Part shown: in pieces, positions 1 to 54,090 of the stretch
How positions within the stretch are numbered: the first letter of the stretch is position 1
How the letters are laid out: each line of letters opens with the position of its first letter
From: Thermoanaerobaculia bacterium
GTDB lineage: Bacteria; Acidobacteriota; Thermoanaerobaculia; Multivoradales; SZUA-115
Length of the DNA stretch: 63,420 bases
NCBI GenBank assembly: GCA_044869955.1
Contig: JBIOYC010000308.1
Coordinates: forward strand, 1-63,420
Direction of reading: 5' to 3'
Program-made: the position numbers and the translations under genes
The notes under the pieces: generated by a model
Seen by the model: only the letters and a program-made list of their open reading frames with translations
The model's database searches: none
What the model was told of the DNA's origin: nothing

Positions 1-738
<738 letters not shown>

Positions 739-746
<8 letters not shown>

Positions 747-1404
747 CGTCGCCCATCCCGGCCTCGCCCACCACTTCGAGAGCTACGAGCAGCAGCGCCA
801 GTCTGCTTCGCTCGGAATGTGGGTGTTCCTGGCCCAGGAGATCATGTTCTTCGGCGGGATGTTCCTCGCCTACATGGTCTACCGGTCCCGCTACCCGTTG
901 GCCTTCATCGCCGGCAGCCATCACCTGGACATCACGCTCGGCGCTTTCAACACCGCGGTGCTGATCGGCAGCAGCCTGACCATGGCACTTGGCGTGCGGG
1001 CGGCTCAGCTCGGCCGGCGCAAAGCAGTCGTGCTGTTCCTGATCCTGACTCTGGTCCTGGGCTCGATCTTCCTGGTGGTCAAATACTTCGAGTACAGCGA
1101 GAAGTGGGACCACCATCTGATCCCCGGCAAGCACTTCCACTTCGAAGGCGAAGGCAAGTTCGCGGAGATGCCCCAGGGGCCGATGCAGATCTTCTTCTCG
1201 CTCTACTTCGCGATGACCGGCTTCCACGCCCTACACATGATCGTGGGTGTGATCCTGATCCTCTACATGCTGCGGCCGGCGTGGCAGGGCAAGTACACGC
1301 CCGAGAACCACAACTACGTCGAGGGTTTCGGGCTCTACTGGCACTTCGTCGACATCGTCTGGATCTTCCTGTTCCCCTTGCTGTACTTGATCGGCCGCCA
1401 CTGA
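739..1404 (+). CDS. ctaE: cytochrome c oxidase subunit III
   Basis: A 221-aa polytopic protein with subunit III-like sequence ([40 protein letters not shown]). The TTG start overlaps the subunit I stop by 8 nt. Confidence 0.9.
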
Positions 1405-1414
1405 GGAGCGCGTG

Positions 1415-1714
1415 ATGTCGGTGCACGTCTCGTCCGTCAAGACCTACATCCTGATCTTCTCCGCCCTGATGGTGCTCACCGCGATCACGGTGGGAGCGGC
1501 CTTGTTCGATCTCGGCGCCCTCAACAACGTCGTGATGCTCACCATCGCGGTCACCAAGGCGACGCTGGTGGTGCTCTTCTTCATGCACGTGGCCCACGCC
1601 ACCAAGTTGATCAAGCTGGTGGTGGTGAGCAGCATGTTCTGGCTGCTGCTGTTGTTCGTCTTCACCATGTCCGACTACATGACGCGCGGCTGGCTGGGAG
1701 TCGCCGGCAAGTAA
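1415..1714 (+). CDS. cytochrome c oxidase subunit IV (small bacterial CoxIV/CtaF-type membrane subunit)
   Basis: A roughly 99-aa, 3-TM protein immediately after subunit III. ATG 1415 is preceded by GAGGAG (1404-1409); the track ORF starts at GTG 1412. Confidence 0.7.
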   Translation: MSVHVSSVKTYILIFSALMVLTAITVGAALFDLGALNNVVMLTIAVTKATLVVLFFMHVAHATKLIKLVVVSSMFWLLLLFVFTMSDYMTRGWLGVAGK

Positions 1715-1715
1715 G

Positions 1716-2291
1716 TTGCGGGTCAACGGCAGCCTCCTCGACCTCCTCCTCGAGGTACAGATCCTCGATCGTGTGCCGCGTATCGGCTATCCGATGCGCG
1801 GCGTCGCCGACGCCGAAAGCGTCACCGAGCATTCCTGGCACGTCGTCTTCCTGGTCTGGGCGATCGGTCCGCGGATCAGCGGCCTCGACGTCGGCCGGGC
1901 CATTCAGATCGCCCTCGTCCACGACCTCGCGGAGCTGCGCATCGGCGACCTGCCCCAGGTCGCTTCGCGCTACTTCCCGCCGGGGGCCAAGAAGGCTGCC
2001 GAGTCGGCGGCACTGGATGAGATCCTCGCCCCGCTGCCGGAGGCGAGCCGGGCTCTCTTCGCCGAGTATCTGGCCGGGGAGTCGCAGGAGGCTCGCCTGG
2101 TCAAGGCCTGCGACAAGCTGCAGCTGATGCTCAAGGTGGCGATGTACGAGCGGGGTGGGGCGGGGGGCCTGAAGGAGTTCTGGGGCAACCCGGCGAACTT
2201 CACCGACGGCGGCTTCGCCGAGATCCGCGAGCTGTTCGAGGAGCTGCGGCGGTGGCGTGAAAGCGACCCGGGAAGAGGGTTCCCGGGATGA
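1716..2291 (+). CDS. HD-domain phosphohydrolase (YfbR-like 5'-deoxynucleotidase family)
   Basis: Motifs VTEHSWHV and ALVHDLAELRIGDLP are typical of the HD superfamily. The TTG start lies 2 nt after the preceding stop. Confidence 0.75.
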   Translation: MRVNGSLLDLLLEVQILDRVPRIGYPMRGVADAESVTEHSWHVVFLVWAIGPRISGLDVGRAIQIALVHDLAELRIGDLPQVASRYFPPGAKKAAESAALDEILAPLPEASRALFAEYLAGESQEARLVKACDKLQLMLKVAMYERGGAGGLKEFWGNPANFTDGGFAEIRELFEELRRWRESDPGRGFPG

Positions 2292-2665
2292 ACGCGGGGA
2301 GCCGTTCGATCTGGAAGTGCGTCGCCCTCGCGGCCTGGACCGGCCTGGGGCTGATCGGCTGTAGCGAGGGCGCCGAGGCCGACAAGGCCCGCGCCTACAA
2401 CCTCTACCAGCGCAATTGCGCTGTCTGCCACGGTGGAGACGCCAAAGGGATGCGCGGGCTGGGCAAGAGCCTGATCGACAACCCCTTCGTCAAGGACCGC
2501 GGCGAAGCCGAGCTGGTGGGCTTCCTCAAGACCGGCCGCGACGCTTCCCACCCCCTGAACGAGACCGGCGTCAACATGCCGCCCCGCGGCGGCAATCCCT
2601 CCCTGACCGACGAGGACCTCGCGGCGATCTCACGGCATCTGAAGGGGTTGGCGGGGAATCGCTGA
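2288..2665 (+). CDS. monohaem c-type cytochrome, probable lipoprotein
   Basis: There is a single CAVCH haem-binding motif with a downstream Met region (GVNMPPRGG). The N-terminal signal has LIGC. The ATGA overlaps the upstream stop. Confidence 0.8.
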   Translation: MNAGSRSIWKCVALAAWTGLGLIGCSEGAEADKARAYNLYQRNCAVCHGGDAKGMRGLGKSLIDNPFVKDRGEAELVGFLKTGRDASHPLNETGVNMPPRGGNPSLTDEDLAAISRHLKGLAGNR

Positions 2666-2678
2666 AGCGGGCGCCGGC

Positions 2679-3263
2679 TCAGCGCTCGCCTTCGTCCTCT
2701 GCGTCCTCGCCGCCGCTCGGCGGCTTGAGACCTCTCTTCTCCAGCAGCCGCTCGATGCGCTGGCGGCGCCTCTTGCCGAGCAGGCGGTGGGCGGTGTCCG
2801 AGACGTCGCGCAGGACTTCGCGCAGGTCGTCCGGGCCGCTCCAGTGGCGGCGGGCGTGCGGCTCGAGCTCGCCGCCGAAGACTTGCGACAGCAGGGCCGT
2901 GGCCAGCACCAGGTCGTCGAGGAAGCCCGCGGCGCCGAGCAGGCCCTCGGGGAAGAGGTCCAGGGGGAGGAGGAAGTAGGCCAGCACCGAGCCGATCAGC
3001 GCCCGGGTGCCCCTCGGCACCTCCTTGTCCAGGGCGAGCCGAACCAGGAGGAGGAAGATGTCCGGCACCAACAGGAGGACGCGCATGGCGTCGGCACCCA
3101 GGCGATGACCCTTCTTCTCGAAGGAGCTGAGCACCCGCTTGCGCAGCCGATCGTAGGCGCCGAGCAGGTGCTCCTCTCGCTCGGGCACGGGCAAGGCCTC
3201 GAGGCGAGCGAGCTCCGGATCGTGGGGGCGGGGCTCCGCCGGATCCTGATTCATTCCAAGCAT
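2679..3263 (-). CDS. DUF1232 (YkvA-family) membrane protein
   Basis: The segment LAYFLLPLDLFPEGLLGAAGFLDDLVLATALL matches the DUF1232 signature (PxDxxPD/E...G..DD). Confidence 0.65.
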   Translation of the reverse strand: MLGMNQDPAEPRPHDPELARLEALPVPEREEHLLGAYDRLRKRVLSSFEKKGHRLGADAMRVLLLVPDIFLLLVRLALDKEVPRGTRALIGSVLAYFLLPLDLFPEGLLGAAGFLDDLVLATALLSQVFGGELEPHARRHWSGPDDLREVLRDVSDTAHRLLGKRRRQRIERLLEKRGLKPPSGGEDAEDEGER

Positions 3264-3381
3264 CTTAGCAGTGTCGACCCTGCGGGGCCGACAAGAAGTC
3301 CGGCCAAGACGGGTGCGATAGAGTCAGGCGGCTGAGTCGGCCGCAGATGCCCCCGCCGGCCGCCGATCCGAGAAGAGCACC

Positions 3382-4284
3382 ATGAGCCGCGCCGCCGATT
3401 CGGCCCTGGAAACGGGCCGTCCATCCGTTGCCAGCGACCTCGCCGAGCTGACCAAGTCGCGGATCACCATCCTGGTGGTGGTGACCGCCGCGGCGGGGTA
3501 CCTCCTGGCGAGTGGGGACAGGAGCCTGTGGCAGGCTCATTTCGCCTGGACTCTGCTGGGCACCGGCCTCCTGGCTGCCGGCGCTTCCGCCTTGAACCAG
3601 GTGATCGAGCGGGACCTCGACGCCCTGATGAAGCGCACGATGCACCGCCCTCTGCCGGCGGGCCGCCTGGATCCGGACCTCGCCCTGGGAGTGGGAGTCG
3701 CCCTGGTGGTCGCGGGGCTCGCGGTGCTGGCGCAGACGACCAACCTGCTGACCGCCGCGCTGGGCGCCGCCACCGTGCTCGGCTACCTCTTTCTCTACAC
3801 CCCCCTGAAACGCAAGACCTCGCTGGCCACCGTGGTGGGGGCGGTGCCGGGGGCGATCCCGCCGATGATGGGCTGGGCGGCCGTGCGGGACGACGTGGCC
3901 CTGGGCGCCTGGGCCCTCTTCGGCATCCTGTTCTGCTGGCAGCTGCCGCACTTCCTCGCCATCGCCTGGATGTATCGCGAGGACTACGCTCGTGGCGGCT
4001 TTCCGATGCTGCCGGTGATCGATCGTGAAGGCCGTGAGACCTCTCGCCAGACTGTGCTCTGGAGTGGCGCCCTCCTGCCCGTCTCCTTGCTACCCACCGT
4101 GCTCGGCCTCGCCGGCAGGGTCTACTTCGTAGGGGCCCTGCTCCTCGGGCTGGCCTTCTTCGTGATCGCCTGTGCCTTCGCCATGACTCGCAGCCACCTC
4201 GCCGCCCGCCGTCTGCTCCTGACCTCGGTCGCCTACTTGCCGGCCCTGCTGGCGGTGCTGGCGGTCGACCGTCTCGTGGATTGA
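3382..4284 (+). CDS. ctaB: protohaem IX farnesyltransferase (haem O synthase)
   Basis: A 300-aa polytopic UbiA-type prenyltransferase (NQVIERDLDALMKRT, YTPLKRKT, WQLPHFLAIAW), located in an oxidase cluster. Confidence 0.9.
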   Translation: MSRAADSALETGRPSVASDLAELTKSRITILVVVTAAAGYLLASGDRSLWQAHFAWTLLGTGLLAAGASALNQVIERDLDALMKRTMHRPLPAGRLDPDLALGVGVALVVAGLAVLAQTTNLLTAALGAATVLGYLFLYTPLKRKTSLATVVGAVPGAIPPMMGWAAVRDDVALGAWALFGILFCWQLPHFLAIAWMYREDYARGGFPMLPVIDREGRETSRQTVLWSGALLPVSLLPTVLGLAGRVYFVGALLLGLAFFVIACAFAMTRSHLAARRLLLTSVAYLPALLAVLAVDRLVD

Positions 4285-4288
4285 GGTC

Positions 4289-4912
4289 TTGCCCTTGAGC
4301 TCCCCTGCACGCTCCCCGCACCTCCGACGCCTCTTGTGGCTGGGGCTCCTGGTGAGCCTGGCGGGGGTGATCCTGCTGGCCGTCGTTCGCCGATTCGAGG
4401 ATGACGGCCGCCGGCTGCCCAATTACGGCACCCTGCCCGGCTTCCTCCTCACCAACCGCGACGGCCGCGAGGTGAGCTCGGCGAGCCTCGAAGGCAAGCC
4501 CTGGGTGGCGAGCTTCATCTTCACGCGCTGCCCGGGCCCCTGTCCGAAGATGACGGCGAAGATGGCCAAGCTCGGCGAGCAGTTGCCCCCCGGCTTCACG
4601 CGGGTCAGCTTCTCGGTCGATCCCGAGCACGACACGCCCGCCGTGCTCACCGCCTACGCCGAGCGCTATCAGGCTCCACCTTCCTGGCTCTTCTTGACCG
4701 GCGGCCGGGAGGCGATCTACGAGCTGGCGAACCTCGGCTTCAAGCTGCTCGCGGCACCCGCCGAGGATGCTGCCTCACCAGAAGGGCCCATCCTCCACTC
4801 CACCCGCTTCGTGCTGGTCGATGGTGAGGGCCGAATCCGGGGCTACTACGACGCCTTCGACCCGGTCGAGGAGAACCGCCTGGTGGCCGATGCGGCGGCA
4901 CTCGCGAGGTGA
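4289..4912 (+). CDS. SCO1/SenC-family copper chaperone (thioredoxin fold)
   Basis: An N-terminal TM anchor, the CxxxC motif FIFTRCPGPCP, and the conserved His context ILHSTRFVLVD. Confidence 0.85.
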   Translation: MPLSSPARSPHLRRLLWLGLLVSLAGVILLAVVRRFEDDGRRLPNYGTLPGFLLTNRDGREVSSASLEGKPWVASFIFTRCPGPCPKMTAKMAKLGEQLPPGFTRVSFSVDPEHDTPAVLTAYAERYQAPPSWLFLTGGREAIYELANLGFKLLAAPAEDAASPEGPILHSTRFVLVDGEGRIRGYYDAFDPVEENRLVADAAALAR

Positions 4913-5328
4913 GCATGGACGTTCGTGACTTGCCGGCCGTCAACGCCTTCCTGAACTCCCTGTCCGCGCTCTGCCTGGTGGCCGGCTACCTGTTGATCCG
5001 CGCTGGCCGTCGAGACGCTCACAAGGTGGCCATGATCGCTGCCCTGGCCTGCTCCACGCTCTTCCTCGCCTGCTACCTGGTCTATCACTACCAGGTCGGC
5101 TCGGTCCGCTTCCAGGGCACGGGCACCCTGCGCACCGTCTACCTCACCATCCTCGCCACGCACACCGTGCTGGCCGCCGCGGTGCCGGTCCTCGCCGCCA
5201 TCGTGGTCACCCACGCCGTGCGCCGTCGCTTCGACCGCCACAAGCGCATCGCCCGCTGGGCGCTGCCGATCTGGCTCTACGTGTCGGTCACCGGCGTGGT
5301 CGTCTACTGGATGCTCTACCAGCTCTAA
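4909..5328 (+). CDS. DUF420 membrane protein (CtaM-like oxidase accessory protein)
   Basis: A 139-aa, 4-TM protein whose start overlaps the SCO stop (GTGA). Its size and position match DUF420 genes of aa3/caa3 clusters. Confidence 0.65.
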   Translation: MSMDVRDLPAVNAFLNSLSALCLVAGYLLIRAGRRDAHKVAMIAALACSTLFLACYLVYHYQVGSVRFQGTGTLRTVYLTILATHTVLAAAVPVLAAIVVTHAVRRRFDRHKRIARWALPIWLYVSVTGVVVYWMLYQL

Positions 5329-5517
5329 GCTCGGTGTTCCCGCCCACGAGGCGGCGTCTCAGCTGCCCGGACCAAGATTCGGTCACCGAAATTCCAGTAC
5401 TTCCATAGTTGGCGCCGCTCGTGATGTGAAGAACCATTGTCACGGATCGGGCTCCAGGGGTACTTCTTCCCTATTGAGCGCTCGTCAACGCAAGTTGGAG
5501 TGGAGGTATCCCTTTCG

Positions 5518-6330
5518 ATGCCCGTGCTGGCTGTCGCTAGCTATAAGGGAGGCGTGGGCAAGACCACGGTGGCCCTCAATCTGGCCTTCGCCCTCGCCCA
5601 GCGCGGGTCGCGAGTGCTGCTCGTCGACGCCGATCCCCAGGGGGGCATCGGCAACTCGGTGCAGGGCACCGCGGCGCGAGCCAGCGCGGGGATGACCGGC
5701 TGCCTCGAAGGGCGCTCCACGGTCGCCGACGCGACCTTGCGCACCAGCCTGGAGCGCCTGGGGATCCTGCCCTTCGCGGGCCGGGACCCGGGAGCCGATC
5801 CGGCCGCCGGTGCCACCCTGTTGGAGGACCGCGGTGCCCTCCAGCGTGTGCTCGAGGAGGCGCGCCGGCTGGCGGACGTGGTGGTGGTCGACACCGCCTC
5901 GGGCCTCCACGGGCCCACCCGCTCGGTCGTCGAGCAGGCAGAGGCGCTCCTGGTGCCGCTCCAGGCCGAGCCCCTCTCCCTCCGGGCCACCACCCACCTG
6001 CTGACCTCGGTTGCGGCCCTGCGCAGCGCCGGGGCGAAGGTGGAGATCATCGGCTTCGTGCTCACCATGCTGTCGTCGAAGAGCGACGTCTCCCTGGCCG
6101 TGGCCCAGGAGACCTGGGGCACCCTGCCGTCCGAGCTGGTCCTGATGAGCTTCGTGCCTCGGGACCCCGCCTTCCTCCAGGCCAGCGCCCACGGCGTGCC
6201 CCTGGGCCTGCTGTCTCGGCGCCCGCCGGCGGTGGCGGGAGTCTTCGATCAGATCGCCGCCGAGCTGGAGCCCCGCCTCGGCCTGGTGAAGGAAGAGACC
6301 ATCGATGAACCGATCCCTCTCCTGGTGTGA
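5518..6330 (+). CDS. ParA/MinD-like P-loop ATPase
   Basis: A deviant Walker A ([20 protein letters not shown]) and Walker B-like [11 protein letters not shown] 5518 is preceded by GGAGGT; the track ORF starts further upstream at 5437. Confidence 0.8.
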
Positions 6331-6886
6331 GCCCGCCACCCTGCAGCAAGCCCTGTTGGCCGCGGGTCTGGCGGCGAGAACGGAGGGGCCTGCCTGGGCC
6401 AAGCCTCGAGCGACCTCCTCCTGGTGGCAGGCGCCGGCAGCGAGGCCGGTGGTCCCTCCTGGCCTGCAGGTCGAGGCGGAGCCGGCGGTGCGCTTCCGGC
6501 CCTTCGAGACCGCCGATTCGGCCCTTCGCGGCCGGCTGGAGGCCCTGTTCGGCTGGATCGTCGAGCAGACCGGCTGCCGCCGGCTCTTCATCGTCGACGC
6601 CGAGGGTCTGGTGGTCGTCGACAAGAACGCCGACCCGACCCTGGTGGCGATCTCCTCCGCCTTCGTCACCCTGATGGAGAGGATCCATGGCAGCCTCGAC
6701 ACCCCCACACGGACCTCGATCGCCATCGAGGTCGACTCCACTCACTACCTGCATCTGTTAGAGGCGGAGACGCCGCTCGGCCGTTACACCCTCGGCCTGG
6801 TCATCCCCCTGCCCTTGAGGCGGGAGCTGACCGAGGCCTTCCGCAAAGGCCTGACCCTCGCGATGAGCGCCGACGACGAAGCGTAG
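6305..6886 (+). CDS. Roadblock/LC7 (MglB-like) domain protein with low-complexity N-terminus
   Basis: The C-terminal ~110 aa ([35 protein letters not shown]...[21 protein letters not shown]) looks like a Roadblock/LC7 fold. The start is uncertain (ATG 6305 or TTG 6356). Confidence 0.55.
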
Positions 6887-6923
6887 GAGTCGGTACCCGG
6901 AAACCAGAGACGCGGAGGCCCCG

Positions 6924-7736
6924 ATGGCACTACCCAACTACGACCTGCGAGACAAGGCCCAAAACCGTGACTTCCTCGGCTACGTCCAGGGCCTGCCTCT
7001 GCAGACTGTCCTGCAGATGATCGAGATCGAGAAGCGGTCTTGCGTTCTCTACGTCTACACCGAGACCCAGGAGGGACGGCTGGCCTTCGAGCAAGGCCGG
7101 GTCGTCGAAGCGGAGGCCGGATCGCTCTCGGGCGAGGCAGCGGCTTACGAGATCGTGGGATGGCCGAGCACGGACGTCGAGCTGCGCGCACTCGAGGGTG
7201 CGCCCGGCCAGCGGCTCGACCTGAAAGTCAGTGGCATCTTGCTCGATCGACTTTGCCGAGACGACGAGACCCGGCTGCCGGAGCCCGAACCGGTGCTCAA
7301 GCTGGTCGAGCTCGTGCCGTCGGATCTGCCCGGAGAGGGAAAGGAGGAGCTTGAAGTGAATTCGCTTCAGAAGGTTCTCGAGAGTTTCCGCGACGAGGTC
7401 CCGGAGTTCGTCTCGACCGACATCGTCAACATCGACAGCGGCCTGTCGATCGGGGGTGGCTCGGTCGATCCAGAGTTCGACGCCTCGATCGCCGCGGCCT
7501 CGTACGCGGAGGTCGTCAAGGCGAATCGGCGGGCCCTCGACCTCCTGGGCATGGGCGCCGACGCCACGGAAGACATCCTGATCTCGACCGAGAGGGTGTA
7601 CGTGCTGATCCGTCCCATGGGCCACGAGTACTACCACGTGCTGGCGGTGTCCCGGAAAGGGAACCTCGGCCTCGCGCGCGCGATCATGAAGAAGTATGGC
7701 CCCAGGCTCTTGTCGGCCATCGGCGAGCTCGCCTGA
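6924..7736 (+). CDS. DUF4388 (PATAN-type) N-terminal domain fused to a Roadblock/LC7 domain
   Basis: The N-terminus (DFLGYVQGLPLQTVLQMIEIEKRSCVLYV...GRLAFEQGRVVEA...AAYEIVGW) is DUF4388-like. The C-terminus (EFVSTDIVNIDSGLSIGG...VYVLIRPMGHEYYHVLAVSRKGNLGLARAIM) is Roadblock-like. Confidence 0.6.
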   Translation: MALPNYDLRDKAQNRDFLGYVQGLPLQTVLQMIEIEKRSCVLYVYTETQEGRLAFEQGRVVEAEAGSLSGEAAAYEIVGWPSTDVELRALEGAPGQRLDLKVSGILLDRLCRDDETRLPEPEPVLKLVELVPSDLPGEGKEELEVNSLQKVLESFRDEVPEFVSTDIVNIDSGLSIGGGSVDPEFDASIAAASYAEVVKANRRALDLLGMGADATEDILISTERVYVLIRPMGHEYYHVLAVSRKGNLGLARAIMKKYGPRLLSAIGELA

Positions 7737-7799
7737 TCGCATCGGACCGCTCGCGGTGAGCGGCGGACCTGACCACGGTTTCGGGGAGGAGGCTCACCC

Positions 7800-8339
7800 G
7801 TGCACGGCTTCATCATCTCGGAGATCAAGAAGTACGTCGAGACCAAGCTCGGCCGCGAAGCCTGGCCCACTCTGCTGGAACAGGCCGGGCTGGGCAAGAA
7901 GGAGTACGAGAACTTCCTCATGTACCCCGACGAGGAAGTCGTCACCATGGTCGTCACGGCGTCGCAGATCACCGGTCTCGAGGTGTCGGTCATCCTCGAA
8001 GACTTCGGTCTGTTCATCGGCGGCGACCTGATCCGCATCTACAAGCCGCTGCTCAATCCCTCCTGGCGTACCGTCGAGTTTCTCGCCAATGTCGAGGACA
8101 CCATCCACCACGTGGTGCGCACTCGCAACCGTCAGGCCAAGCCGCCGGCCCTGGTCTGCTCCCGCACGGGTTCCAACGAGGTCACGGTGGTCTACCGTTC
8201 ACCACGCCGGATGTGCGCGCTGGCCAAGGGCATCATCCGCGGTGTGGCCGGGCACTACGGCGAGACCGTGGAGATCCGCGAAGCGACCTGCATGACCCAG
8301 GGGGACCCGACCTGTCAGATCAAGGTCCAGGTGAGCTGA
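7800..8339 (+). CDS. stand-alone H-NOX (haem NO/oxygen-binding, HNOB) domain protein
   Basis: The N-terminus MHGFIISEIKKYVETKLG is present. The proximal His context FLANVEDTIHHVV, then AKPP, then the YxSxR motif (VVYRSPRR) align with Tt H-NOX H102/P115/Y131-S133-R135 as I recall them. The GTG start is preceded by GGGGAGGAGG. Confidence 0.8.
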   Translation: MHGFIISEIKKYVETKLGREAWPTLLEQAGLGKKEYENFLMYPDEEVVTMVVTASQITGLEVSVILEDFGLFIGGDLIRIYKPLLNPSWRTVEFLANVEDTIHHVVRTRNRQAKPPALVCSRTGSNEVTVVYRSPRRMCALAKGIIRGVAGHYGETVEIREATCMTQGDPTCQIKVQVS

Positions 8340-8357
8340 GCAGGTCCGCCTCGGGGC

Positions 8358-8957
8358 TCAGAAGTAGTAGACCGACCAGACGTGGAAGGCCACCAGGGCC
8401 AGCAGCAGGCTGACGAACACCGTGTGAGCCAGCAGCCAGGTGGCGCGGAAGGGACGGCGGTGGTTCCGGCTCCCGTCGAGCCTCTCGCCGCGATCCTGCC
8501 GGCGTCCGGCGTGACGCAGCTTGAGGGCCTCGCCCAGCTTGCCCCCCACCCCCACCAGCACCGTGCCCACCAGGCTGGTCAGCAGCAAGCCGTTCAAGTT
8601 CGAGCCCCAACGACCCCCGGTGTGGACGACGATCAGCGGCAGGAGGCCAGCGCCGACGAGGATGTGGAGGACGCGCCAGCGCGCACGGTCTCCCGGCACG
8701 TGGACCTTGTTGCGCTTGACCAGAGCGTAGCCGACCTCGAGCAAGATCAGGCCCAGTGCTACGAAGCCCGTGACCTGCCGGAAGAAGTGGCTGCGGGTCC
8801 AGCGCGCGAGCTGGGCGAGGAGGCTTTCGCCGCCGTTGAGCAGCGCCTGCAGCATCGGCAGCATGGCCAGGACCGTCACTCCCAGCACGACGATCATGGG
8901 CAGCACCCGGAACTCCCAGCGCAGCCTCGGCTTGACCTTGATGGTTGCGGTGCTCAT
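8358..8957 (-). CDS. polytopic membrane protein, putative dihaem b-type cytochrome
   Basis: A 199-aa protein with 4-5 TM helices. Two transmembrane His pairs are each spaced by 13 residues (HILVGAGLLPLIVVH and HTVFVSLLLALVAFH). RBS GGGAGG; it is the last gene of the multihaem operon. Confidence 0.5.
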   Translation of the reverse strand: MSTATIKVKPRLRWEFRVLPMIVVLGVTVLAMLPMLQALLNGGESLLAQLARWTRSHFFRQVTGFVALGLILLEVGYALVKRNKVHVPGDRARWRVLHILVGAGLLPLIVVHTGGRWGSNLNGLLLTSLVGTVLVGVGGKLGEALKLRHAGRRQDRGERLDGSRNHRRPFRATWLLAHTVFVSLLLALVAFHVWSVYYF

Positions 8958-8969
8958 GGTCGGCCTCCC

Positions 8970-9563
8970 TCACGAAAGCGGCAAGGTGATCACGACCCCA
9001 CCGATCACGTCCCCGACCTTGAAGTCCTTGCGCGGGCTCTCGGCGTGGTCGTTGTGGCAGCCGACACAGGCCGGAGAGACGGCGACGTCGGCGTAGACGG
9101 CCATGAAATAGCGCTTGCCGTTGAATTCCTGGATGGTCCGAAAGGGTTTGGTGCGGTCGGAAATGACGGACGAGATGCCCTGCTTCTCGAAGTCGGTCTT
9201 CGGCAGGTTGGCTTTGTTGATCGCCCAGGGGCTGATCAGGGCGTAGCGCAGGCCCACCCCCTTTTCTGAGACCAACTGGGAGCCCATGCGCAGCATCTGG
9301 GCGGGCAGCGGCAGGGCCTTGTCCGCTTCGAAATGCTCGCTGGCCTTGATCACTCCCTCCTTGTTCTGCAGCCGCTGGACCACGCGGTCGGCGTAGACCG
9401 CGCGATCCGCCTCGATGACGGCGTGGATGTAGTCGGCGACCAGCTCGGGTGGAATGCCCGCGGGCGGAGCCGCGGCGGCGTCGCCGCAGTGGTCGAGCAG
9501 CAGCGAGACGGCAACGGCGGCGAGGGCCGCCCGGGTGGTGGCGCGCAGCGTGAAAGTCCTCAT
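8970..9563 (-). CDS. DUF3365 (Tll0287-like) c-type haem protein, secreted
   Basis: A signal peptide MRTFTLRATTRAALAAVAVSLLL and a C-terminal CVGCH haem motif within ...YFMAVYADVAVSPACVGCHNDH..., typical of DUF3365. ATG 9561-9563 is preceded by GGGGGAGG. Only the last 197 codons of the 622-aa track ORF are real. Confidence 0.75.
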   Translation of the reverse strand: MRTFTLRATTRAALAAVAVSLLLDHCGDAAAAPPAGIPPELVADYIHAVIEADRAVYADRVVQRLQNKEGVIKASEHFEADKALPLPAQMLRMGSQLVSEKGVGLRYALISPWAINKANLPKTDFEKQGISSVISDRTKPFRTIQEFNGKRYFMAVYADVAVSPACVGCHNDHAESPRKDFKVGDVIGGVVITLPLS

Positions 9564-9565
9564 GT

Positions 9566-10885
9566 CTATCCTCCCCCGCGGCTCCGCGCCGCCAGGTCTT
9601 TGATGAAACGGATGGAGGCCGCCCGTTCCCGCGGCCGGCCGGCGTAGCCGCGCCTGCCGAGATCGCGGTCCAGGAGGCTCGAGAGAGCCAGGTCGAGACC
9701 GTGGCAGCGCAGGCAGACCATGCCGGCCATGCGGTCGACCGGCTCCAAAGTGAACGTGTTGTTGTGGTTGACGACCACGCGCGGTCCCCTGCCTTCGTCG
9801 ATGGTCACCCGCGGCAGATGACAGGTGGCGCAGGTCACCTCGCCGGCTCCCGTGGGGCCCGGCCCGGAGCCGACCGTGCGGCCATGGGGAGAGGCCGTGA
9901 AGAGCCGGCTGTGCTCGTCGTCGTGGCAGGCCAGGCAGGCCTCGACGGCCGCCCGCCGGGTGTCCACGCTGTGCGGGTCGTGGCAGGTGCCGCAGGCCAT
10001 CGCAGCCGGGCGGTCCTTGCGGTCCTTCTTCATGGGCAGCCGCGCGTCGTCCGGCCCGAGGGCCGCCAGCTCCGCCTTGGCTCGTACGCCGTGCTTGCCG
10101 GCCCGCCAGGTCTCGTGCTCGAAGCCGTGGCAGTCCGCGCACTTGCCGAAGCCGGGGGAGCTGACGAAAGCAGCGCCCTCGCCGTGGCAGTCGCCGCAGC
10201 TCACCCCCGCCTCGCGGTGGCGGCTGGCGAGCCACGCTCGCTCGATGGCCGGGTCGCCCCGTCCGGGGGGGGCGTCCGCCGTGGCCGCCGGGCCGGCCGT
10301 GGGCTGCCGGAACGGGGGTAGCCCGTTGCGATCGACGAGGTCCGGCTTGTCGGCCTCCCGGGTGAGGAAGGCGGTGTTCAGCGTCCGATTGTCGTGGTAG
10401 TTGTGGCAACCCGCATCGCCGCAGGAGCTGGCGGGCAGGCCCTTGTGGCTGGCTCTCTTCTCGGGCACGTCGTCGTGGCAGGGGAAGCAGAAGGAGGCAT
10501 CGACCGTGACCCCGCGGGCCGCCACGTGATGCTCGGCGTGGCAGGTGATGCAGCGGGAGGCGTCCAGGCGGGCGAGGTCCTCGGCCCAGCGGGGGTCCTC
10601 GAAGACCCGGATGGAGTGGGTGTCCTGGGCGAGCTCGGCGCGGTGGCAACCGGCACAGGACTCGTTCTTGATCGCCTCGAATCCGCCGTGGCACGAGGAG
10701 CAAGCACCCTCGATCAGATGGTGACCGTCGGAGGTCCTGCCCGGGACGAAGATCGCGCGGTTGCCCGAGGCGAAGAGGATCCCGAGCACCGCGGCGACCA
10801 CTGCACCCGGCACCACGGGTCTCAAGAGCAGGCGCCACAGCGCCCCGGAGCCGCCTCCACCTCTCATCCCTGGCTCTACCCCCAT
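9566..10885 (-). CDS. multihaem cytochrome c (10 CxxCH plus one Cx4CH), N-terminally membrane-anchored
   Basis: Motifs CSSCH, CAGCH, CITCH, CFPCH, CGDAGCH, CGDCH, CADCH, CGTCH, CLACH, CATCH and CLRCH. The start is taken at ATG 10885 (alternatively 10867), ahead of the hydrophobic anchor LWRLLLRPVVPGAVVAAVLGILF. Confidence 0.85.
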   Translation of the reverse strand: MGVEPGMRGGGGSGALWRLLLRPVVPGAVVAAVLGILFASGNRAIFVPGRTSDGHHLIEGACSSCHGGFEAIKNESCAGCHRAELAQDTHSIRVFEDPRWAEDLARLDASRCITCHAEHHVAARGVTVDASFCFPCHDDVPEKRASHKGLPASSCGDAGCHNYHDNRTLNTAFLTREADKPDLVDRNGLPPFRQPTAGPAATADAPPGRGDPAIERAWLASRHREAGVSCGDCHGEGAAFVSSPGFGKCADCHGFEHETWRAGKHGVRAKAELAALGPDDARLPMKKDRKDRPAAMACGTCHDPHSVDTRRAAVEACLACHDDEHSRLFTASPHGRTVGSGPGPTGAGEVTCATCHLPRVTIDEGRGPRVVVNHNNTFTLEPVDRMAGMVCLRCHGLDLALSSLLDRDLGRRGYAGRPRERAASIRFIKDLAARSRGGG

Positions 10886-11096
10886 CGGATAAAACTCAGA
10901 TGTCGACCTACAACACGAATAGACAAGTGGTGCATTCCGGATTTCTCGACGTTGGAGCAATTTACCACAGGAATACCCACGGTGCATCCGGAGCGACGCC
11001 AGAACTGCCGTTGGTGGAGATCCTTCGGCCTCCGAATGCTCGTCCCGCCGGGCTTTCGATCGTCTGGTACCCTTCTCGTCGAACACAACCCTCGCC

Positions 11097-13268
11097 ATGA
11101 GCCAACCCCGAGATCCTGGTTCGCCCTCTCGTCCTCCGGCCGATGGGGGAGCGCCGGAGAGCGGTGGAGCGGGTCGCCTGGATCGGCGCGGTGATCTCGC
11201 CTGGATCTACCTCGATGAGCCGGGCCGGCGGGTGAACACCCTCTCGTCGCGCCTGCTGGCCGCCTTCGAGGAGTGGCTGGGCGATCTCGAGGGGCAGCCC
11301 CCCGCGGGGCTGGTGGTGACCTCAGCGAAGCCGGACACCTTCGTCGCCGGGGCGGACCTCGAGGAGCTCGCCGGCCTCACGGACCGCACGGCGGTCCTGG
11401 CCCTGCTTCGCCAGGGCCACGGCTTGCTGTCGCGGCTCGAGAGGCTGCCCTGCCCGACCGTGGCGGCGATCCACGGTGCCTGCCTGGGGGGCGGCCTGGA
11501 GTTGGCTCTGGCCTGCCGTTTCCGGGTGGCCACGAGCGCGACCGTGACCCGTCTCGGCCTGCCCGAGGTCGAGCTCGGCCTGATCCCGGGCATGGGCGGC
11601 ACCCAACGTCTACCGCGGCGAATCGGAGTGCCGAGCGCCCTCGAGCTACTGCTCACCGGCCGGCGTCTCGACGCCCGGAGCGCGCTGAGGCGCGGCCTGG
11701 TGGACGAGGTCTGCGATCCCCCCGATCTGGCCCTCGCGGCCGAGCGGTTGGCGCGGCGGCGAGGGTGCCCCCGCCCGAGCCTCGCCGCCCGAGCCGCCAA
11801 CCGGGTGGCCCGATGGCCCGGGCTTCGGGGCGCGATCTTCGGTCCGGCGAGGAAGCAGGTCCTGGCGCGGACCCACGGGCACTACCCGGCCCCCTTGAAA
11901 GCCCTGGAAGTGGTCGCCGAGGGCCTGCGCCTTCCTTTGCCCCGGGGTCTGGAGCTCGAGGCCACGGCCTTCGCCGAGCTGGTTCTCTCGGCAACGGCGC
12001 GGAACCTGATGGGTCTCTTCTTCCTCAAGAAGCACGTCGAGGCCGAGGCGGCGGCCGTGGCGAAGGGGACGGGGCCGGTCGAGCGCCTGGGGGTGATCGG
12101 GGCCGGCTTCATGGGCGCCGGGGTGGCCCAGCTCGCCGCCACCAAGGGGTACTCGGTGGTGCTCGTGGACCGCGACCAGCCGTCCCTCGACCGGGGCATC
12201 AAGCAGGTGGGGGACCTCTTCGGCGCGCTCGAGGCGAAAGGACGTCTGGTCGGCGAGCAGGCCGCCGCGGCCCGCGCGCGAGTGGTGCCTACGCTCGGGA
12301 TGGCCGAGCTCGCCGGCGTGGACCTGGTGATCGAGGCCGTGTTCGAGGACCTCGCCGTCAAGCACCAGGTGCTCGGGGCCCTCGAGGCGGTGGCCGCGGA
12401 GCGGCTGGTCTTCGCCTCGAATACCTCCGCGCTGCCCATCGCCTCGATCGCCGCCGCCAGCCGCCGCCCCGGCCGGGTGGTGGGCATGCACTTCTTCAGT
12501 CCGGTGGCGAAGATGCCCCTGCTCGAGGTCATCCACCACCCCGGGACCGATCGCGAAGCCCTGGCGACGGCGGTGGCGGTGGGGGAGCGCCTGGGCAAGA
12601 CCGTGGTGGTAGTGGCGGACGGCCCCGGCTTCTTCACCACCCGGGTGCTCGCGCCGTTGCTCAACGAGGCCGCCCGCTGCCTGCTCGAAGGAGCCACGAT
12701 CCCCGAGATCGACCGCGCCGCCACGGCCTGGGGCTGGCCGGTGGGTCCCCTGACGCTGCTCGACGAGGTCGGTCTGGACGTTGCCCGCCACGCTCAGGGA
12801 GTGATGACCGCGGGCCTCGGTCCACGGTTCGAGGCGCCGCCCCCCCTCGCCCGTCTGGCCGCGGCAGGGCGCTTCGGGCGCAAGGCCGGAAGGGGCTTCT
12901 ACCGCTACCAGGGCCAGGCGAAGGGCCCGGACGAGAGCGTCTACGCCCTGATCGGCTGGCAGGCTCGCCCCCTGCCGGCCGAGGACGTCGCGGATCGGCT
13001 CTGGCTGGCGATGCTGAACGAGACCGCCCGGGCGATCGAGGACGGCATCCTGACCGACCCCCAGGCCATCGACCTCGCGGTGGTCTTCGGCTTCGGCTTC
13101 CCCCCTTTCCGCGGCGGCATCCTGCGCGAAGCCGACTGCAGGGGCCTCCGCTGGGTGGTCGACCGGCTGCGATCACTCGACGAGCGCTACGGCGGCGAGG
13201 CCCTGGCGCCGGCGCCCCTGCTGATGCGGATGGCTGCTTCGGGGGAGCGGTTTTACGCCGGGCGTTGA
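11097..13268 (+). CDS. fadJ: fatty-acid oxidation complex alpha subunit (enoyl-CoA hydratase / 3-hydroxyacyl-CoA dehydrogenase)
   Basis: A 723-aa protein. It has an N-terminal crotonase fold (AAIHGACLGGGLELALAC) and a central Rossmann dehydrogenase (LGVIGAGFMGAGVAQ). The C-terminal 3HCDH domain carries GFFTTRVL. Confidence 0.9.
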   Translation: MSQPRDPGSPSRPPADGGAPESGGAGRLDRRGDLAWIYLDEPGRRVNTLSSRLLAAFEEWLGDLEGQPPAGLVVTSAKPDTFVAGADLEELAGLTDRTAVLALLRQGHGLLSRLERLPCPTVAAIHGACLGGGLELALACRFRVATSATVTRLGLPEVELGLIPGMGGTQRLPRRIGVPSALELLLTGRRLDARSALRRGLVDEVCDPPDLALAAERLARRRGCPRPSLAARAANRVARWPGLRGAIFGPARKQVLARTHGHYPAPLKALEVVAEGLRLPLPRGLELEATAFAELVLSATARNLMGLFFLKKHVEAEAAAVAKGTGPVERLGVIGAGFMGAGVAQLAATKGYSVVLVDRDQPSLDRGIKQVGDLFGALEAKGRLVGEQAAAARARVVPTLGMAELAGVDLVIEAVFEDLAVKHQVLGALEAVAAERLVFASNTSALPIASIAAASRRPGRVVGMHFFSPVAKMPLLEVIHHPGTDREALATAVAVGERLGKTVVVVADGPGFFTTRVLAPLLNEAARCLLEGATIPEIDRAATAWGWPVGPLTLLDEVGLDVARHAQGVMTAGLGPRFEAPPPLARLAAAGRFGRKAGRGFYRYQGQAKGPDESVYALIGWQARPLPAEDVADRLWLAMLNETARAIEDGILTDPQAIDLAVVFGFGFPPFRGGILREADCRGLRWVVDRLRSLDERYGGEALAPAPLLMRMAASGERFYAGR

Positions 13269-19247: not shown

Positions 19248-19340
19248 GGTGCAAAGAGGGCAGGCACAGGGGCCTGCCCCTACGAAGACCTCTGCGATCC
19301 GGCCGTAGGGGCAGGCCCCTGTGCCTGCCCTCGTCGCACC
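19248..19340. terminator. large perfect inverted repeat filling the convergent moeZ/anti-sigma gap (probable bidirectional terminator or REP-like element)
   Basis: The 29-nt arms GAGGGCAGGCACAGGGGCCTGCCCCTACG (19256-19284) and CGTAGGGGCAGGCCCCTGTGCCTGCCCTC (19304-19332) are exact reverse complements, separated by a 19-nt loop. An outer GGTGC/GCACC pair follows a 3x3 internal loop. Confidence 0.6.
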
Positions 19341-20386
19341 TACCGCCGAGCTGGCTCGACCAGCATCAGCTCGACGGTCCCGATCACCTCAGGCTTGGTG
19401 CCTGCCGGCTCGCCGAGGACCTCGAGAGTCAGCTCGCCGGCTGGGTAGCGCGTGGGTTCGATGAGGACGACGGCCGAGCCGGCGTCTCGGCTCATCGTCT
19501 CCTCACGGCTCTCGATCCGGTCGCTCTTGTCGCGCAAGCGGAACCGGAAGCGCTGGACATCTGGGTAGTCCTTGGCCAGGCGGTCCAGACGTACTGAAAC
19601 AGCTTGCAGACCCTGTGTGCGCAGGAGGCTCAGGATCTTGCCGCTTCCCCGGACAACGCCCTCGCGGCCGCTCTGGGGGTTGATCTGCGCTGGGCCGGGC
19701 AGAACCGAGGGCACTCCCTCGGCCAGCCGGGTAGGAACGGGCCGCGCGGTGCGCAGCCGCTCGAGCTCGAGCTGGAGTCGGTCCAACTCGGCGGCGCTGG
19801 CAGCGTTGCCCGTGGCCTTCGACTCCGCCTCGCGGACCCGCGCCGTCAGTTGCTCGACGGCTGCGCGATGCTCGGCGTCCCGACCCTGTTCGGTGCGGCG
19901 GTACTCCGCCACGGTGGCCGTGAGGTCGCTGCGTAGGGTCTGGTTCCACACCAGCAGCGCCGGCAGCAGGAGCCCGGCGATCGAAGCGGCGATCGGCAGC
20001 CAGCGAGGCACCTCGACCTTGCGGCCGAAGCGGCCAAACAGCACCTTGCCGCCGTTGGGCGAAGCCGCGCCGGCGGGCGTGGCCTCGAAGTCGGCCAGGC
20101 TCCGGCGGAGCAGGGCTACCTCTTCCTGGTAACGCGGTTCGCTTTCGATCCGCCGAGCCACCAGGGTCGGGTCGAGACCCGAAGTGGTGGTGCCCAGCAC
20201 GTAGTCGGTCAGGGCCTCGGCGGGAAGCTCCGCGCGGTAGATCTCGGCCGCGCGACGCAGCTCCTCGAGCTCGCGGCGGCAATCCGTGCAGCCTGCCAGG
20301 TGACCTTCGATCTCATCCTTCTCGCGAGGGTCGAGCGAGCCGTTCAAGAACCAGGGCAGCCGCTCGGCGATTTCAGTGCAGTTCAT
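19340..20386 (-). CDS. zf-HC2 anti-sigma factor, single-pass, with ~210-aa extracytoplasmic domain
   Basis: The N-terminus is MNCTEIAERLPWFLNGSLDPREKDEIEGHLAGCTDCRREL (the H-x3-C-x2-C motif) and the TM helix is WLPIAASIAGLLLPALLVW. ATG 20386 is preceded by GAGGTGAGGG, 7 nt after the sigma stop; the track ORF starts further upstream at 20524. Confidence 0.75.
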   Translation of the reverse strand: MNCTEIAERLPWFLNGSLDPREKDEIEGHLAGCTDCRRELEELRRAAEIYRAELPAEALTDYVLGTTTSGLDPTLVARRIESEPRYQEEVALLRRSLADFEATPAGAASPNGGKVLFGRFGRKVEVPRWLPIAASIAGLLLPALLVWNQTLRSDLTATVAEYRRTEQGRDAEHRAAVEQLTARVREAESKATGNAASAAELDRLQLELERLRTARPVPTRLAEGVPSVLPGPAQINPQSGREGVVRGSGKILSLLRTQGLQAVSVRLDRLAKDYPDVQRFRFRLRDKSDRIESREETMSRDAGSAVVLIEPTRYPAGELTLEVLGEPAGTKPEVIGTVELMLVEPARR

Positions 20387-20393
20387 CGATCCC

Positions 20394-20996
20394 TCACCTC
20401 CCGACATGCTTAGGCTGGGCCGGGGGGGAGGCGTTACCTCCCGGTGTCGATGCGATGGCGGCCAGGTCCTCACGCACGGCGAGGGCGCGACGCCGGCAGC
20501 GCAACACGCGTACGCGCAACGCACCTTCCGCCACGCCCAGGCGGTCGCTCATCTCGCGGTAGGAGAGGCCGTCGAAGATCATCTGCCAGAGCCGGCGGCA
20601 GTCGTCGCTCATCTCGTCGAGCACCCGGAAGAGGAGATCCCGGGTCTCCCGGGACTGCGAGCTCTGCGCCGCGGCCTCGAGGACCGCGTCGCCCCGCTGA
20701 TCGACGGTCTCGAGCTCCTCCCAAGCCACCCGCCGGCGGGCCCGTAGGCGATCGAGGCAGGCGTTGGCGGTGACCCGCCAGACGTAGGTCTTGAGGCTCG
20801 ACTCGCCGCGGAAGGTGCCCCTACCGAAGAGTCGGGTCAGCTCCAGGCGGACGTCCTGCAGCACGTCGTCGAAGTCTCCCTCCAGCCGGCTACGGAAGGA
20901 GGCTGCCGCCCGGCGGATCCAATCGTCCACCTCGGCGAACGTACCAGGCTCACCGCTCAGATAGCGGTTGATCCGGCTCTGATCGTCGACGCTCAC
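20394..20996 (-). CDS. ECF-type RNA polymerase sigma factor (sigma-70 regions 2 and 4)
   Basis: Region 2 (DDVLQDVRLELTR...LKTYVWRVTANACLDRLR) and a region 4 HTH (DGLSYREMSDRLGVAEGALRVRVLRCR). GTG start. Confidence 0.9.
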   Translation of the reverse strand: MSVDDQSRINRYLSGEPGTFAEVDDWIRRAAASFRSRLEGDFDDVLQDVRLELTRLFGRGTFRGESSLKTYVWRVTANACLDRLRARRRVAWEELETVDQRGDAVLEAAAQSSQSRETRDLLFRVLDEMSDDCRRLWQMIFDGLSYREMSDRLGVAEGALRVRVLRCRRRALAVREDLAAIASTPGGNASPPAQPKHVGR

Positions 20997-21113
20997 TCTC
21001 TCGGGCCCCCGGGGTCGGCGGCTTGATGCTGGCCGAAGTGACGGAAGGAGTCAACGATCCGAACCCGGCGCGAGCCTGTCAGCCGGAGCGGAGTAAGATC
21101 GAATCTCAACGAA

Positions 21114-32521: not shown

Positions 32522-32785
32522 TCCTCTGACCTCACTGTTGGTGGATCCGAGCCACTCCGCATCCTACCGAGTCGATGGTGCCGGGTAGCCTCATTGTACG
32601 AAGCCCACCGAGGCCGTCAAGGTCCCGTGCATGGTCAATGACTGAGATATTGACACGAAGGGATTGATCGGATGCTTCGAGAGATGGCTCCCTGCCGGGG
32701 CGGCCAGCCCGGGGTCCCCGCAGTAGGATAGCGGCTTGCTCTCGGCCCGGCCGTCGCCGAAGCCCGCCCCAGAACCGATCGACGC

Positions 32786-35614: not shown

Positions 35615-35619
35615 GGAGC

Positions 35620-35647
35620 TTTCCAGTGAGGGCCCGGGTGCTATATT
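35620..35647 (+). promoter_or_regulatory. candidate promoter TTTCCA-16-TATATT upstream of the FHA-RDD gene
   Basis: Hexamers were read directly, ~95 nt upstream of GTG 35742. This is speculative. Confidence 0.25.
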
Positions 35648-35741
35648 CGCGACAGCTCCCCGGCGCCGCTCCCGCCTTCGCAGCCCGCTCTGCCTCGCGG
35701 GGCTCCGGACGGCCCAGCGTGGGAGCGGAGGAGAGCACCAG

Positions 35742-36824: not shown

Positions 36825-36909
36825 GTCGGAGGGCCAGCCCTTCCCGCCGTCATCCCCGCACGAGCGGGGTCCCACCGGGCCGTTTCTCACCTCCTGTTAG
36901 GATCCCCCC

Positions 36910-53437: not shown

Positions 53438-53480
53438 TGTTTGATTCTAAGCGGAAGCGAAGCTGCGTCGGGCTCGAGGT

Positions 53481-54014: not shown

Positions 54015-54090
54015 CGAGGGTCCTTTCCGAAAGTGGCGCCGCCGGCGCCGGCTGGGAGGGATTGTACGGGAGTCGGTCCGAGCGCTCGGC

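Follow-up and report, generated by a model that had tools for sequence, protein, structure and literature searches.

A haem-type H-NOX gene in a recurrent set with ParA-like ATPase, Roadblock and PATAN genes in Thermoanaerobaculia

Introduction

Bacterial H-NOX signalling is known almost wholly through histidine kinases and cyclic di-GMP enzymes. The question of what an H-NOX protein might control where neither is encoded beside it is raised by a locus in a 63-kb stretch of Thermoanaerobaculia DNA (G+C content approximately 69%), the whole of which was analysed and is referred to here as the window. At positions 5518 to 8339 of the forward strand, the open reading frame (ORF) calls gave four tightly packed, co-directional genes that encode, in order, a ParA-like ATPase, a protein here called RoblA, a fusion of a PATAN domain with a Roadblock domain, and a stand-alone H-NOX. 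The best protein matches of the window were to metagenome-assembled genomes (MAGs) of Thermoanaerobaculia (Acidobacteriota), with P0001 being 94% identical and located on contig DASUEU010000037.

The original prediction for this locus, made from the sequence alone, was that of a conservon-like switch in which a haem-based signal is relayed through the Roadblock proteins to the ParA-type ATPase. In the literature searched, no description was found of H-NOX together with Roadblock, MglB or PATAN proteins, of Roadblock with ParA, or of PATAN with ParA, and the reviewed neighbourhood networks of H-NOX genes comprise histidine kinases and response regulators, GGDEF/EAL proteins, FIST and Nudix only. 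The present analysis indicates that the four genes very probably form one functional module, and points to a previously undescribed coupling of gas sensing to an ATPase of the positioning or polarity type. The reading preferred here, to which we assign a probability of about 0.5, is that nitric oxide (NO)-bound H-NOX relays its signal through a heterodimer of Roadblock domains to the ParA cycle, with the PATAN domain serving for targeting or output.

The four-gene set and its conservation

The short gaps and overlaps that had been described for the four co-directional genes were confirmed by the ORF coordinates (Table 1). The RoblA start at 6305 overlaps the end of the ParA-like gene by 26 nucleotides (nt), and the two following gaps are of 37 nt and 63 nt. 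A GGAGG-type ribosome-binding site precedes three of the four starts, including the ATG of the ParA-like gene at 5518, and the ATG at 6305 is preceded only by the purine-rich GAAGGAAGAG. Pfam scans were performed on 53 ORFs spanning the full window, and no small GTPase, histidine kinase, cyclase, GGDEF, EAL, HD-GYP or methyl-accepting chemotaxis protein was detected among them. The claim that the window contains none of the usual partners of H-NOX or Roadblock proteins was therefore upheld.

The window proteins, and profiles, were used as queries against the neighbourhoods of H-NOX, PATAN-Roadblock and RoblA homologues, in 31 loci, and a genome scan with a 12-sequence H-NOX alignment gave five genome loci. 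All four components were found together in L001, L002/L017, L004, L005, L006/L018, L007/L016, L009, L015, L019 and L031. These loci represent approximately 10 distinct lineages, mostly Acidobacteriota/Thermoanaerobaculia MAGs, and pairwise identities among their H-NOX proteins range from 46% to 93%. The third gene of L004 and L031 encodes a bare Roadblock domain without PATAN and the set is kept; it is still kept in L031 even though the H-NOX gene is inverted and RoblA is approximately 30% identical to that of the window. None of the partners was found beside the stand-alone H-NOX relatives of L008, L010, L011 and L012 (42-50% identity). No histidine kinase, GGDEF/EAL enzyme or small GTPase was found beside the set at the ParA-type loci; a linked kinase occurs only beside a locus of another type (L023, below). 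Judged by these sequence comparisons, the set of H-NOX, ParA, Roadblock and PATAN genes is co-inherited and does not represent a chance neighbourhood. The original prediction was thus left standing where it was open to refutation, as its H-NOX matches the HNOB family, the four genes are co-conserved in approximately 10 lineages and through rearrangements, and comparable ParA-type loci have no H-NOX-linked kinase or cyclase.

Fortuitous adjacency of four genes with unrelated functions was also considered. A scan of positions 5200 to 11400 for promoter and terminator consensus sequences found none by which an operon could be defined, a result that is uninformative given the 69% G+C and the non-model phylum, and the components do occur in other combinations too. 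Set against this are the presence of the set in approximately 10 lineages with H-NOX identities down to 46%, the overlapping or closely spaced genes, their retention through rearrangements, and the lack of the set beside every distant stand-alone H-NOX that was checked. A single recently transferred island is argued against by identities of 46-75%. An explanation by chance is therefore extremely improbable.

The other combinations were found in variant loci. L003, a contig of 5.4 kb, carries only an H-NOX gene and a convergent PATAN-Roadblock gene, beside haem-copper oxidase subunits. L023 (5479-8383, +) encodes a REC-PATAN-Roadblock protein (427 amino acids, aa), an H-NOX (174 aa), a Roadblock protein (130 aa) and a second H-NOX (186 aa), with a divergent histidine kinase and an NtrC-type sigma-54 activator alongside. 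The two H-NOX proteins of L023 are 24-27% identical to that of the window and keep the His, Pro-Pro and YxSxR residues discussed below, so that the link between H-NOX, Roadblock and PATAN spans deep H-NOX clades. In L024, a similar locus, a REC-PATAN-Roadblock protein and one H-NOX were found, with further Roadblock matches that were weak only. The order in L013 (3013-9122, +) and L014 is a REC-PATAN-Robl_LC7 protein, a 163-aa protein, two V4R proteins and then a second REC-PATAN-Roadblock protein, which is separated from the V4R proteins by an aminotransferase. The V4R proteins occupy the place of H-NOX in these two loci, and TRAPPC3, V4R and H-NOX have a common fold (PMC10933270). Lastly, L029 (1504-4179) and L030 (1-3393) encode a PATAN-TPR protein, ParA, RoblA (overlapping ParA), a Roadblock-like protein and a 424-aa protein in which the V4R match was sub-threshold only.

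As ParA is missing in L013, L023 and L003, it is not needed for H-NOX/Roadblock function generally. The variant loci therefore define two stable pairings, one of ParA with RoblA and the other of an H-NOX or V4R-fold sensor with the conserved Roadblock domain, which is usually PATAN-fused. ParA appears as one of two alternative modules, the other being REC, and not as an obligatory end point.

The H-NOX protein

The product of gene 4 had been described as a stand-alone H-NOX, and this identification proved correct. It matched Pfam HNOB (PF07700) over residues 2-160 of 179 with an E-value of 1.4e-33 (116.5 bits, against a cut-off of 25.5), and a V4R match (2e-9) was obtained at its C-terminus. 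The closest PDB entry was the Shewanella oneidensis H-NOX (2kii/4u99; 1.6e-15). Residues H103, P115-P116 and Y132-x-S134-x-R136 are invariant across 29 homologues and also in the proteins of L019, L023 and L031. We take H103 to be the proximal haem ligand (His102 of Thermoanaerobacter (Tt) H-NOX), Pro115 to be the distortion Pro, and YxSxR to be the propionate-binding motif. Gene 4 is thus predicted to encode a bona fide haem-type H-NOX with its haem-binding determinants intact. Counted from the aligned YxSxR, the position of Tt Tyr140, the distal, O2-stabilising residue, is occupied by Leu141, an equivalence that presumes the established Tt H-NOX numbering. With Leu141 in place of Tyr and an apolar distal pocket, the protein is probably of the NO-selective type and binding of O2 would be unlikely.

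Another possible input is redox state. In the alignment with Shewanella H-NOX, three Cys residues of the window protein (the C139 equivalent and a V4R-like CxxxxxxxC) fall at the zinc site, the C-terminal motif is of the V4R/MsvR type, and redox sensing at the H-NOX zinc site has been described in reviews (PMC8738867). These features are consistent with a haem-independent thiol/zinc redox sensor, as has been proposed for the H-NOX of Vibrio cholerae. The Cys triad is, however, missing in several in-module orthologues (among them P0002 (=L002), P0003, P0016, P0038 and P0048) and in both L023 H-NOX proteins, whereas the haem ligands are invariant in all, the Cys-less in-module orthologues included. 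It is therefore the haem site that the module conserves, and a haem-independent redox sensor appears very unlikely. The input of the module is likely to be haem-based sensing of NO.

The two Roadblock proteins

Both halves of the DUF4388(PATAN)-Roadblock fusion that had been predicted for gene 3 were recovered. The PATAN domain (DUF4388/PatA_N, PF14332) was matched at aa 19-115 (5.5e-11; 43 bits against a cut-off of 25), and was above threshold in 66 of 70 homologues. After a linker (aa 118-145) that was modelled with low confidence comes the C-terminal Roadblock/LC7 domain ('RoblB', aa 147-269), which is very highly conserved. Pfam Robl_LC7 (PF03259) did not match this domain even at E<=10. 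In an AlphaFold2 (AF2) model based on a 24-sequence alignment (mean confidence score, pLDDT, of 77.5), residues 147-269 are arranged as α-β-β-α-β-β-β-α. Foldseek matched this domain to MglC (7ct3), MglB (6izw, 6hjm, 1j3w and 3t12), an Asgard Roadblock protein and LAMTOR, with E-values of 1.6e-7 to 4e-5 and target template modelling (TM) scores of 0.64-0.84, typically 0.8. Because the AF2 model matches MglC, MglB and Roadblock structures, the fusion call was right, the model showing a Roadblock fold for the C-terminal domain. The COG-based name given by JGI to gene 3 homologues is regulator of Ras-like GTPase activity (Roadblock/LC7/MglB family), and the L013 paralogue of gene 3 does match Pfam Robl_LC7.

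RoblA is built of a conserved N-terminal peptide (aa 1-21; M-x-x-S-L-S-W-I-D/E-P-x-x-L-x-x-L-L-x-R-A-G), a Pro/Ala-rich linker of 32-82 aa that shows no conservation, and a C-terminal domain of approximately 115 aa (aa ~72-190) with the motif FVADxDGL. An exhaustive HMMER scan (E<=1e-3) gave a family of 196 cluster representatives, 75 of which were aligned; a word-indexed search had returned only the protein itself and one close relative. The architecture is constant over the 75 sequences, and R77, W84, F95, D98, G101 and L102 of the globular domain are near-invariant among them. RoblA matched Pfam Robl_LC7 only weakly (E=0.1), and among the 75 relatives two matched Robl_LC7 and two matched LAMTOR5. 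Profiles built from 8 and from 75 RoblA sequences were negative against the PDB, and hhalign of RoblA against gene 3 was negative. A single-sequence AF2 model of low confidence (pLDDT 42) has the Roadblock topology, and Foldseek matched it mostly to MglB, dynein LC7 and Ragulator, with weak E-values of 6e-3 to 0.1. RoblA is thus probably Roadblock-like. The earlier description of gene 2 as Roadblock/LC7-like is in agreement with the modelled topology and the Foldseek list, and is only weakly supported, the PDB and hhalign profile searches having been negative.

The ParA-like ATPase

The original prediction recognised gene 1 as a deviant-Walker-A ATPase of the ParA/MinD type by its KGGVGKTT motif, and the matches to Pfam AAA_31 (2.2e-24) and CbiA (3.2e-19) are in full accord. 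The motifs KGGVGKTT, DxDPxG and DTxSG are invariant in nine orthologues and the signature Lys of the deviant Walker A is intact, as are the Walker A' Asp and the Walker B Asp; the catalytic core is accordingly predicted to be intact. The nine orthologues also keep a PLQAEPL motif and an acidic C-terminal tail (RLGL..EE..PI.LL). The nearest solved structures were those of Soj/ParA (6iub and 1wcv, from H. pylori and T. thermophilus; E ~1e-19). Every NCBIfam match was far under its cut-off, the best being ParA_partition (91.8 against 180), and the protein appears to lie outside the named subfamilies (chromosomal and plasmid ParA, MinD, FlhG, BcsQ, MipZ and Mrp). Of the family searches proposed with the original prediction, those for HNOB, DUF4388 and AAA_31/CbiA thus gave matches above threshold, and that for Robl_LC7 did so for neither gene 2 nor gene 3.

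The RoblA gene was always found directly after ParA, distant members of the family included, and the two genes are translationally coupled. As their overlap and adjacency are kept even where RoblA identity is 26-30%, ParA is argued to be the cognate NTPase. Alternatively, the Roadblock pair might be an MglB/MglC-like regulator of a remote Ras-like GTPase, modulated by H-NOX and PATAN, with ParA acting separately or being only co-expressed. The Roadblock domain of gene 3 does match MglC and MglB best, PATAN genes are known to occur next to mglA and to mglB homologues (PMC4316618), and the REC variants lack ParA. On the other side, neither the window nor the 31 related loci yielded a small GTPase, or an MglA-like ORF when searched by tblastn with an MglA sequence as query, and the overlap and adjacency of ParA and RoblA persist at 26-30% identity. 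Regulation of a remote GTPase is therefore considered unlikely.

Further candidates were rejected. A MinD-like membrane-targeting helix in the ParA-like protein was considered unlikely because its conserved tail is acidic. Two antisense ORFs over the ParA and RoblA genes, at 5485-6741 (-) (418 aa) and 6062-6754 (-) (230 aa), were judged to be high-GC artefacts, because the forward-strand frames hold Pfam matches and are kept in related loci. A reading as a defence system was dropped, PADLOC having returned only generic P-loop matches for ParA. A simple gene picker based on third-codon-position G+C (GC3) chose one of the antisense ORFs over the real ParA and RoblA genes.

Proposed mechanism

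In the preferred reading, the H-NOX would hold haem and sense NO. The Roadblock domains of RoblA and of the PATAN fusion would form a heterodimer, in the manner of MglB/MglC-type proteins and Ragulator subunits, and the H-NOX would dock on this heterodimer, as MglA does on the MglB dimer. A ligand-driven change in the H-NOX would then alter the Roadblock platform, and the flexibly tethered N-terminal peptide of RoblA would control dimerisation or ATP hydrolysis of the ParA-like ATPase. N-terminal peptides of ParB, MinE and McdB act on their cognate ParA/MinD ATPases. In the last step the PATAN domain would target the complex to a cellular machine, or act on it. The net effect might be that gas controls where or when a ParA-type ATPase acts, probably amid NO/nitrite or oxygen respiration. 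PATAN has been described as an autonomous output domain that binds the pilus motor proteins PilB1/PilC in Synechocystis (bioRxiv 10.1101/2021.06.11.447907).

Several observations weigh against this reading. The REC-type variants L013 and L023 and contig L003 have no ParA, and L029/L030 have no H-NOX. Evidence that RoblA is a Roadblock protein is weak, no pilus or division genes were found near the module, and another part of the genome may hold a small GTPase gene. The order of signal flow is putative. In this respect the original prediction needs qualifying: its relay toward ParA has a direction given by inference only, with ParA lacking in L023 and H-NOX lacking from the ParA set of L029/L030. 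A more tentative version, which we think possible but doubtful, is that either an H-NOX or a V4R protein (Bet3/TRAPPC3-like fold) gates the Roadblock heterodimer, with the tethered peptide switching ParA on or off.

Neighbouring respiratory genes

The module was said to lie between a terminal oxidase cluster and a multihaem cytochrome operon, and Pfam matches of the flanking genes verified this location. Genes for COX3, COX4, cytochrome c, CtaB, SCO1 and DUF420 lie upstream, and a convergent operon of three genes, encoding a multihaem cytochrome, a Tll0287-like protein and a membrane protein, lies downstream (Table 1). The flanks had been stated correctly, and it was the recurrence of this operon beside the module that had been missed.

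Table 1. Coordinates in the window of the four module genes and of the adjoining cytochrome operon
Feature	Position	Strand	Size	Basis and remarks
ParA/Soj-like deviant-Walker-A ATPase (gene 1)	5518-6330	+	270 aa	Pfam, motifs, PDB matches
RoblA (gene 2)	6305-6886	+	193 aa	Family alignment; weak fold evidence
PATAN(DUF4388)-Roadblock fusion (gene 3)	6924-7736	+	270 aa	Pfam, AF2, Foldseek
Stand-alone H-NOX (gene 4)	7800-8339	+	179 aa	Pfam HNOB, alignment, PDB matches
Membrane protein	8358-8957	-	199 aa	Last gene of operon; ends 18 nt from H-NOX stop
Tll0287-like (DUF3365) periplasmic c-type haem protein	8970-9563	-	197 aa	PF11845, 6.5e-18
Multihaem cytochrome c (10 CxxCH and 1 CxxxxCH)	9566-11098	-		Cytochrom_c3_2, Cytochrome_C7; first gene of operon

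The true start of the multihaem cytochrome is uncertain and probably lies downstream of 11098. This protein has weak similarity to NrfA/octahaem nitrite reductase (E 1e-4 to 1e-3). The Tll0287-like protein has a signal peptide and one CVGCH. The membrane protein, which had no match in Pfam or NCBIfam, was seen by alignment and hydropathy to have approximately five hydrophobic segments, four conserved His residues and the motifs HTGGRWGSN and SVYYF; it is conserved in L001, L002/L017 and L019, and is possibly a b-type haem subunit.

The trio of genes also adjoins the module in L001 and L002/L017, where it is convergent, in L016, where it is upstream and divergent, and in L019, where it is co-directional and comes after H-NOX, giving a seven-gene run. 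This makes three arrangements overall. The Tll0287-like gene alone adjoins the module in L006/L018, and the trio was not found beside the module, within 8 kb, in L007, L009, L015 and L031. The link to the cytochrome operon is recurrent, not universal. Haem-copper oxidase subunits or assembly genes (CtaB, SCO1, DUF420) were observed beside the module in the window (409-5328) and in L003 (63-2200, -), SCO1 was observed in L016 (2739-3260), and haem biosynthesis genes, encoding URO-D and a HemY-like amine oxidase, were observed in L031 (12564-14968). As multihaem cytochrome and haem-copper oxidase genes adjoin the module, its context would be one of NO/nitrite or oxygen respiration, and this suggests that its setting is respiratory and possibly concerned with nitrogen oxides.

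This setting might indicate that the module controls, assembles or positions the cytochrome trio or a haem-copper oxidase/NO reductase, and has no role in polarity. ParA would then be an assembly or positioning ATPase of the SIMIBI type, and the H-NOX would report NO that is made or consumed. The recurrence of the trio in three arrangements, the Tll0287-like gene in L006/L018, the oxidase or assembly genes in the window, L003 and L016, and the weak likeness of the cytochrome to nitrite reductases are all concordant with such a role. The modules of L009, L015, L007 and L031 are, however, without those genes within 8 kb, the ParA-like protein is nearer to Soj/ParA than to the Mrp/CooC/NifH maturation ATPases, and neither PATAN nor Roadblock has a known role in cofactor assembly. 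This alternative is thought rather unlikely. It concerns the physiological target of the module and is compatible with the mechanism proposed above.

Comparison with known systems

The closest parallels were sought among systems that share one or more components with the module. In its proposed working it comes nearest to an MglB-type Roadblock protein regulating an NTPase switch and to a pair of ParA and partner. In the MglA/MglB(/MglC) system of Myxococcus and Thermus, as is proposed for the module, a Roadblock/LC7 dimer regulates an NTPase switch, and MglC and MglB are the best matches of the gene 3 domain. The NTPase of the module is, in contrast, a SIMIBI-class ParA/Soj-like protein and not a TRAFAC-class Ras-like GTPase. 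The module also has two Roadblock proteins, one with PATAN and the other with an N-terminal peptide extension, and a haem gas sensor belongs to it. Having no GTPase, the module does not belong to the MglA/MglB system.

The canonical H-NOX systems, with HnoK/HqsK in Shewanella and Vibrio and GGDEF/EAL proteins in Legionella and Paracoccus, also have a stand-alone protein of approximately 180 aa with the proximal His, YxSxR and an apolar distal pocket, and the Cys residues of the zinc site are shared by the window protein. They differ in their partners, which in the module are ParA, Roadblock and PATAN, with no histidine kinase or cyclic di-GMP enzyme.

With ParA/MinD ATPases and their partners (ParB, MinE, McdB, TlpT/PpfA and PomXY), the module has in common the deviant Walker A, an overlapping downstream partner gene and, in RoblA, a short N-terminal motif followed by a flexible linker and a putative dimerising domain. 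Unlike in those partners, the globular domain of RoblA is Roadblock-like and not a DNA-binding, coiled-coil or MinE fold, and there is no evident cargo. The PatA-type PATAN-REC proteins (cyanobacterial PatA, PixG and PixE) are comparable in that the PATAN domain of the module is above the Pfam threshold and is fused to REC in L013 and L023. The PATAN domain of the window is, by contrast, fused to Roadblock, and its input would come from a haem sensor and not from phosphorylation.

The likeness to a conservon, which was part of the original prediction, did not stand up to comparison. In actinobacteria the conservon consists of a CvnA histidine kinase, a CvnB Roadblock protein, a CvnC DUF742 protein and a CvnD GTPase encoded in one operon (PMC4316618). 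The module resembles it as a four-gene signalling cluster with Roadblock and NTPase components, but it belongs to another taxon, has ParA and H-NOX instead, and lacks the CvnA kinase, the DUF742 protein and any CvnD/MglA GTPase. The two have just the Roadblock element in common, and conservon membership was rejected. Finally, the eukaryotic and Asgard TRAPP/Ragulator assemblies likewise combine a Bet3/V4R/H-NOX fold with Roadblock/longin-fold subunits, which in those assemblies regulate an NTPase. This is an analogy of folds only; the module is without a GTPase or a membrane-traffic context, and there is no evidence that the assemblies are homologous.

Other features of the window and related loci

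A DUF1232 gene is present at 2679-3263 (-) of the window, 2.2 kb upstream of the module, and another lies directly downstream of H-NOX in L007 (2348-2944, -), which is possibly a coincidence. MacB/FtsX-type permeases were seen near the module in L006 (9162-11570), L007 (3220-5649), L009 (13304-15805) and L015 (14694-16834), and one is encoded at 57218-58531 of the window; this proximity is probably coincidental, since such permeases are very abundant in Acidobacteriota.

Elsewhere in the window, genes for an ECF-type sigma factor and a zf-HC2 anti-sigma factor (-) adjoin that of a 1109-aa TPR-CHAT protein (+) at 19340-24371. A UvrA-like double ABC ATPase (32732-35614) is encoded upstream of an FHA-RDD membrane protein, which is followed by a MauE-family protein (35538-37890, +). 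Two ORFs of 1186 aa and 249 aa at 49886-54230 (-) have coding-like GC3 and no Pfam match at E<=1e-4.

Implications

If the proposed mechanism is true, the module would represent a new class of output for bacterial H-NOX, and would tie NO sensing to spatial or positional regulation. RoblA would be a new type of partner for a ParA/MinD ATPase, a Roadblock fold acting through a tethered peptide. Roadblock/MglB platforms would then not be confined to small GTPases. Should the version with a ligand-gated platform be true, the output would be the first for a bacterial H-NOX that is neither a kinase nor a cyclase, and no Roadblock-type regulator would have preceded this one for a ParA/MinD ATPase. 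The module would also be a bacterial counterpart, in fold composition, of the NTPase-regulating platforms of TRAPP and Ragulator, in which NO controls how the cell is organised in space. The four proteins are small, soluble and simple in their cofactors, so that the mechanism could be tested in vitro even though the Acidobacteriota hosts are uncultured. That multihaem cytochrome and haem-copper oxidase genes recur beside the module suggests that these organisms use it in the respiration of nitrogen oxides or oxygen, in soils and sediments.

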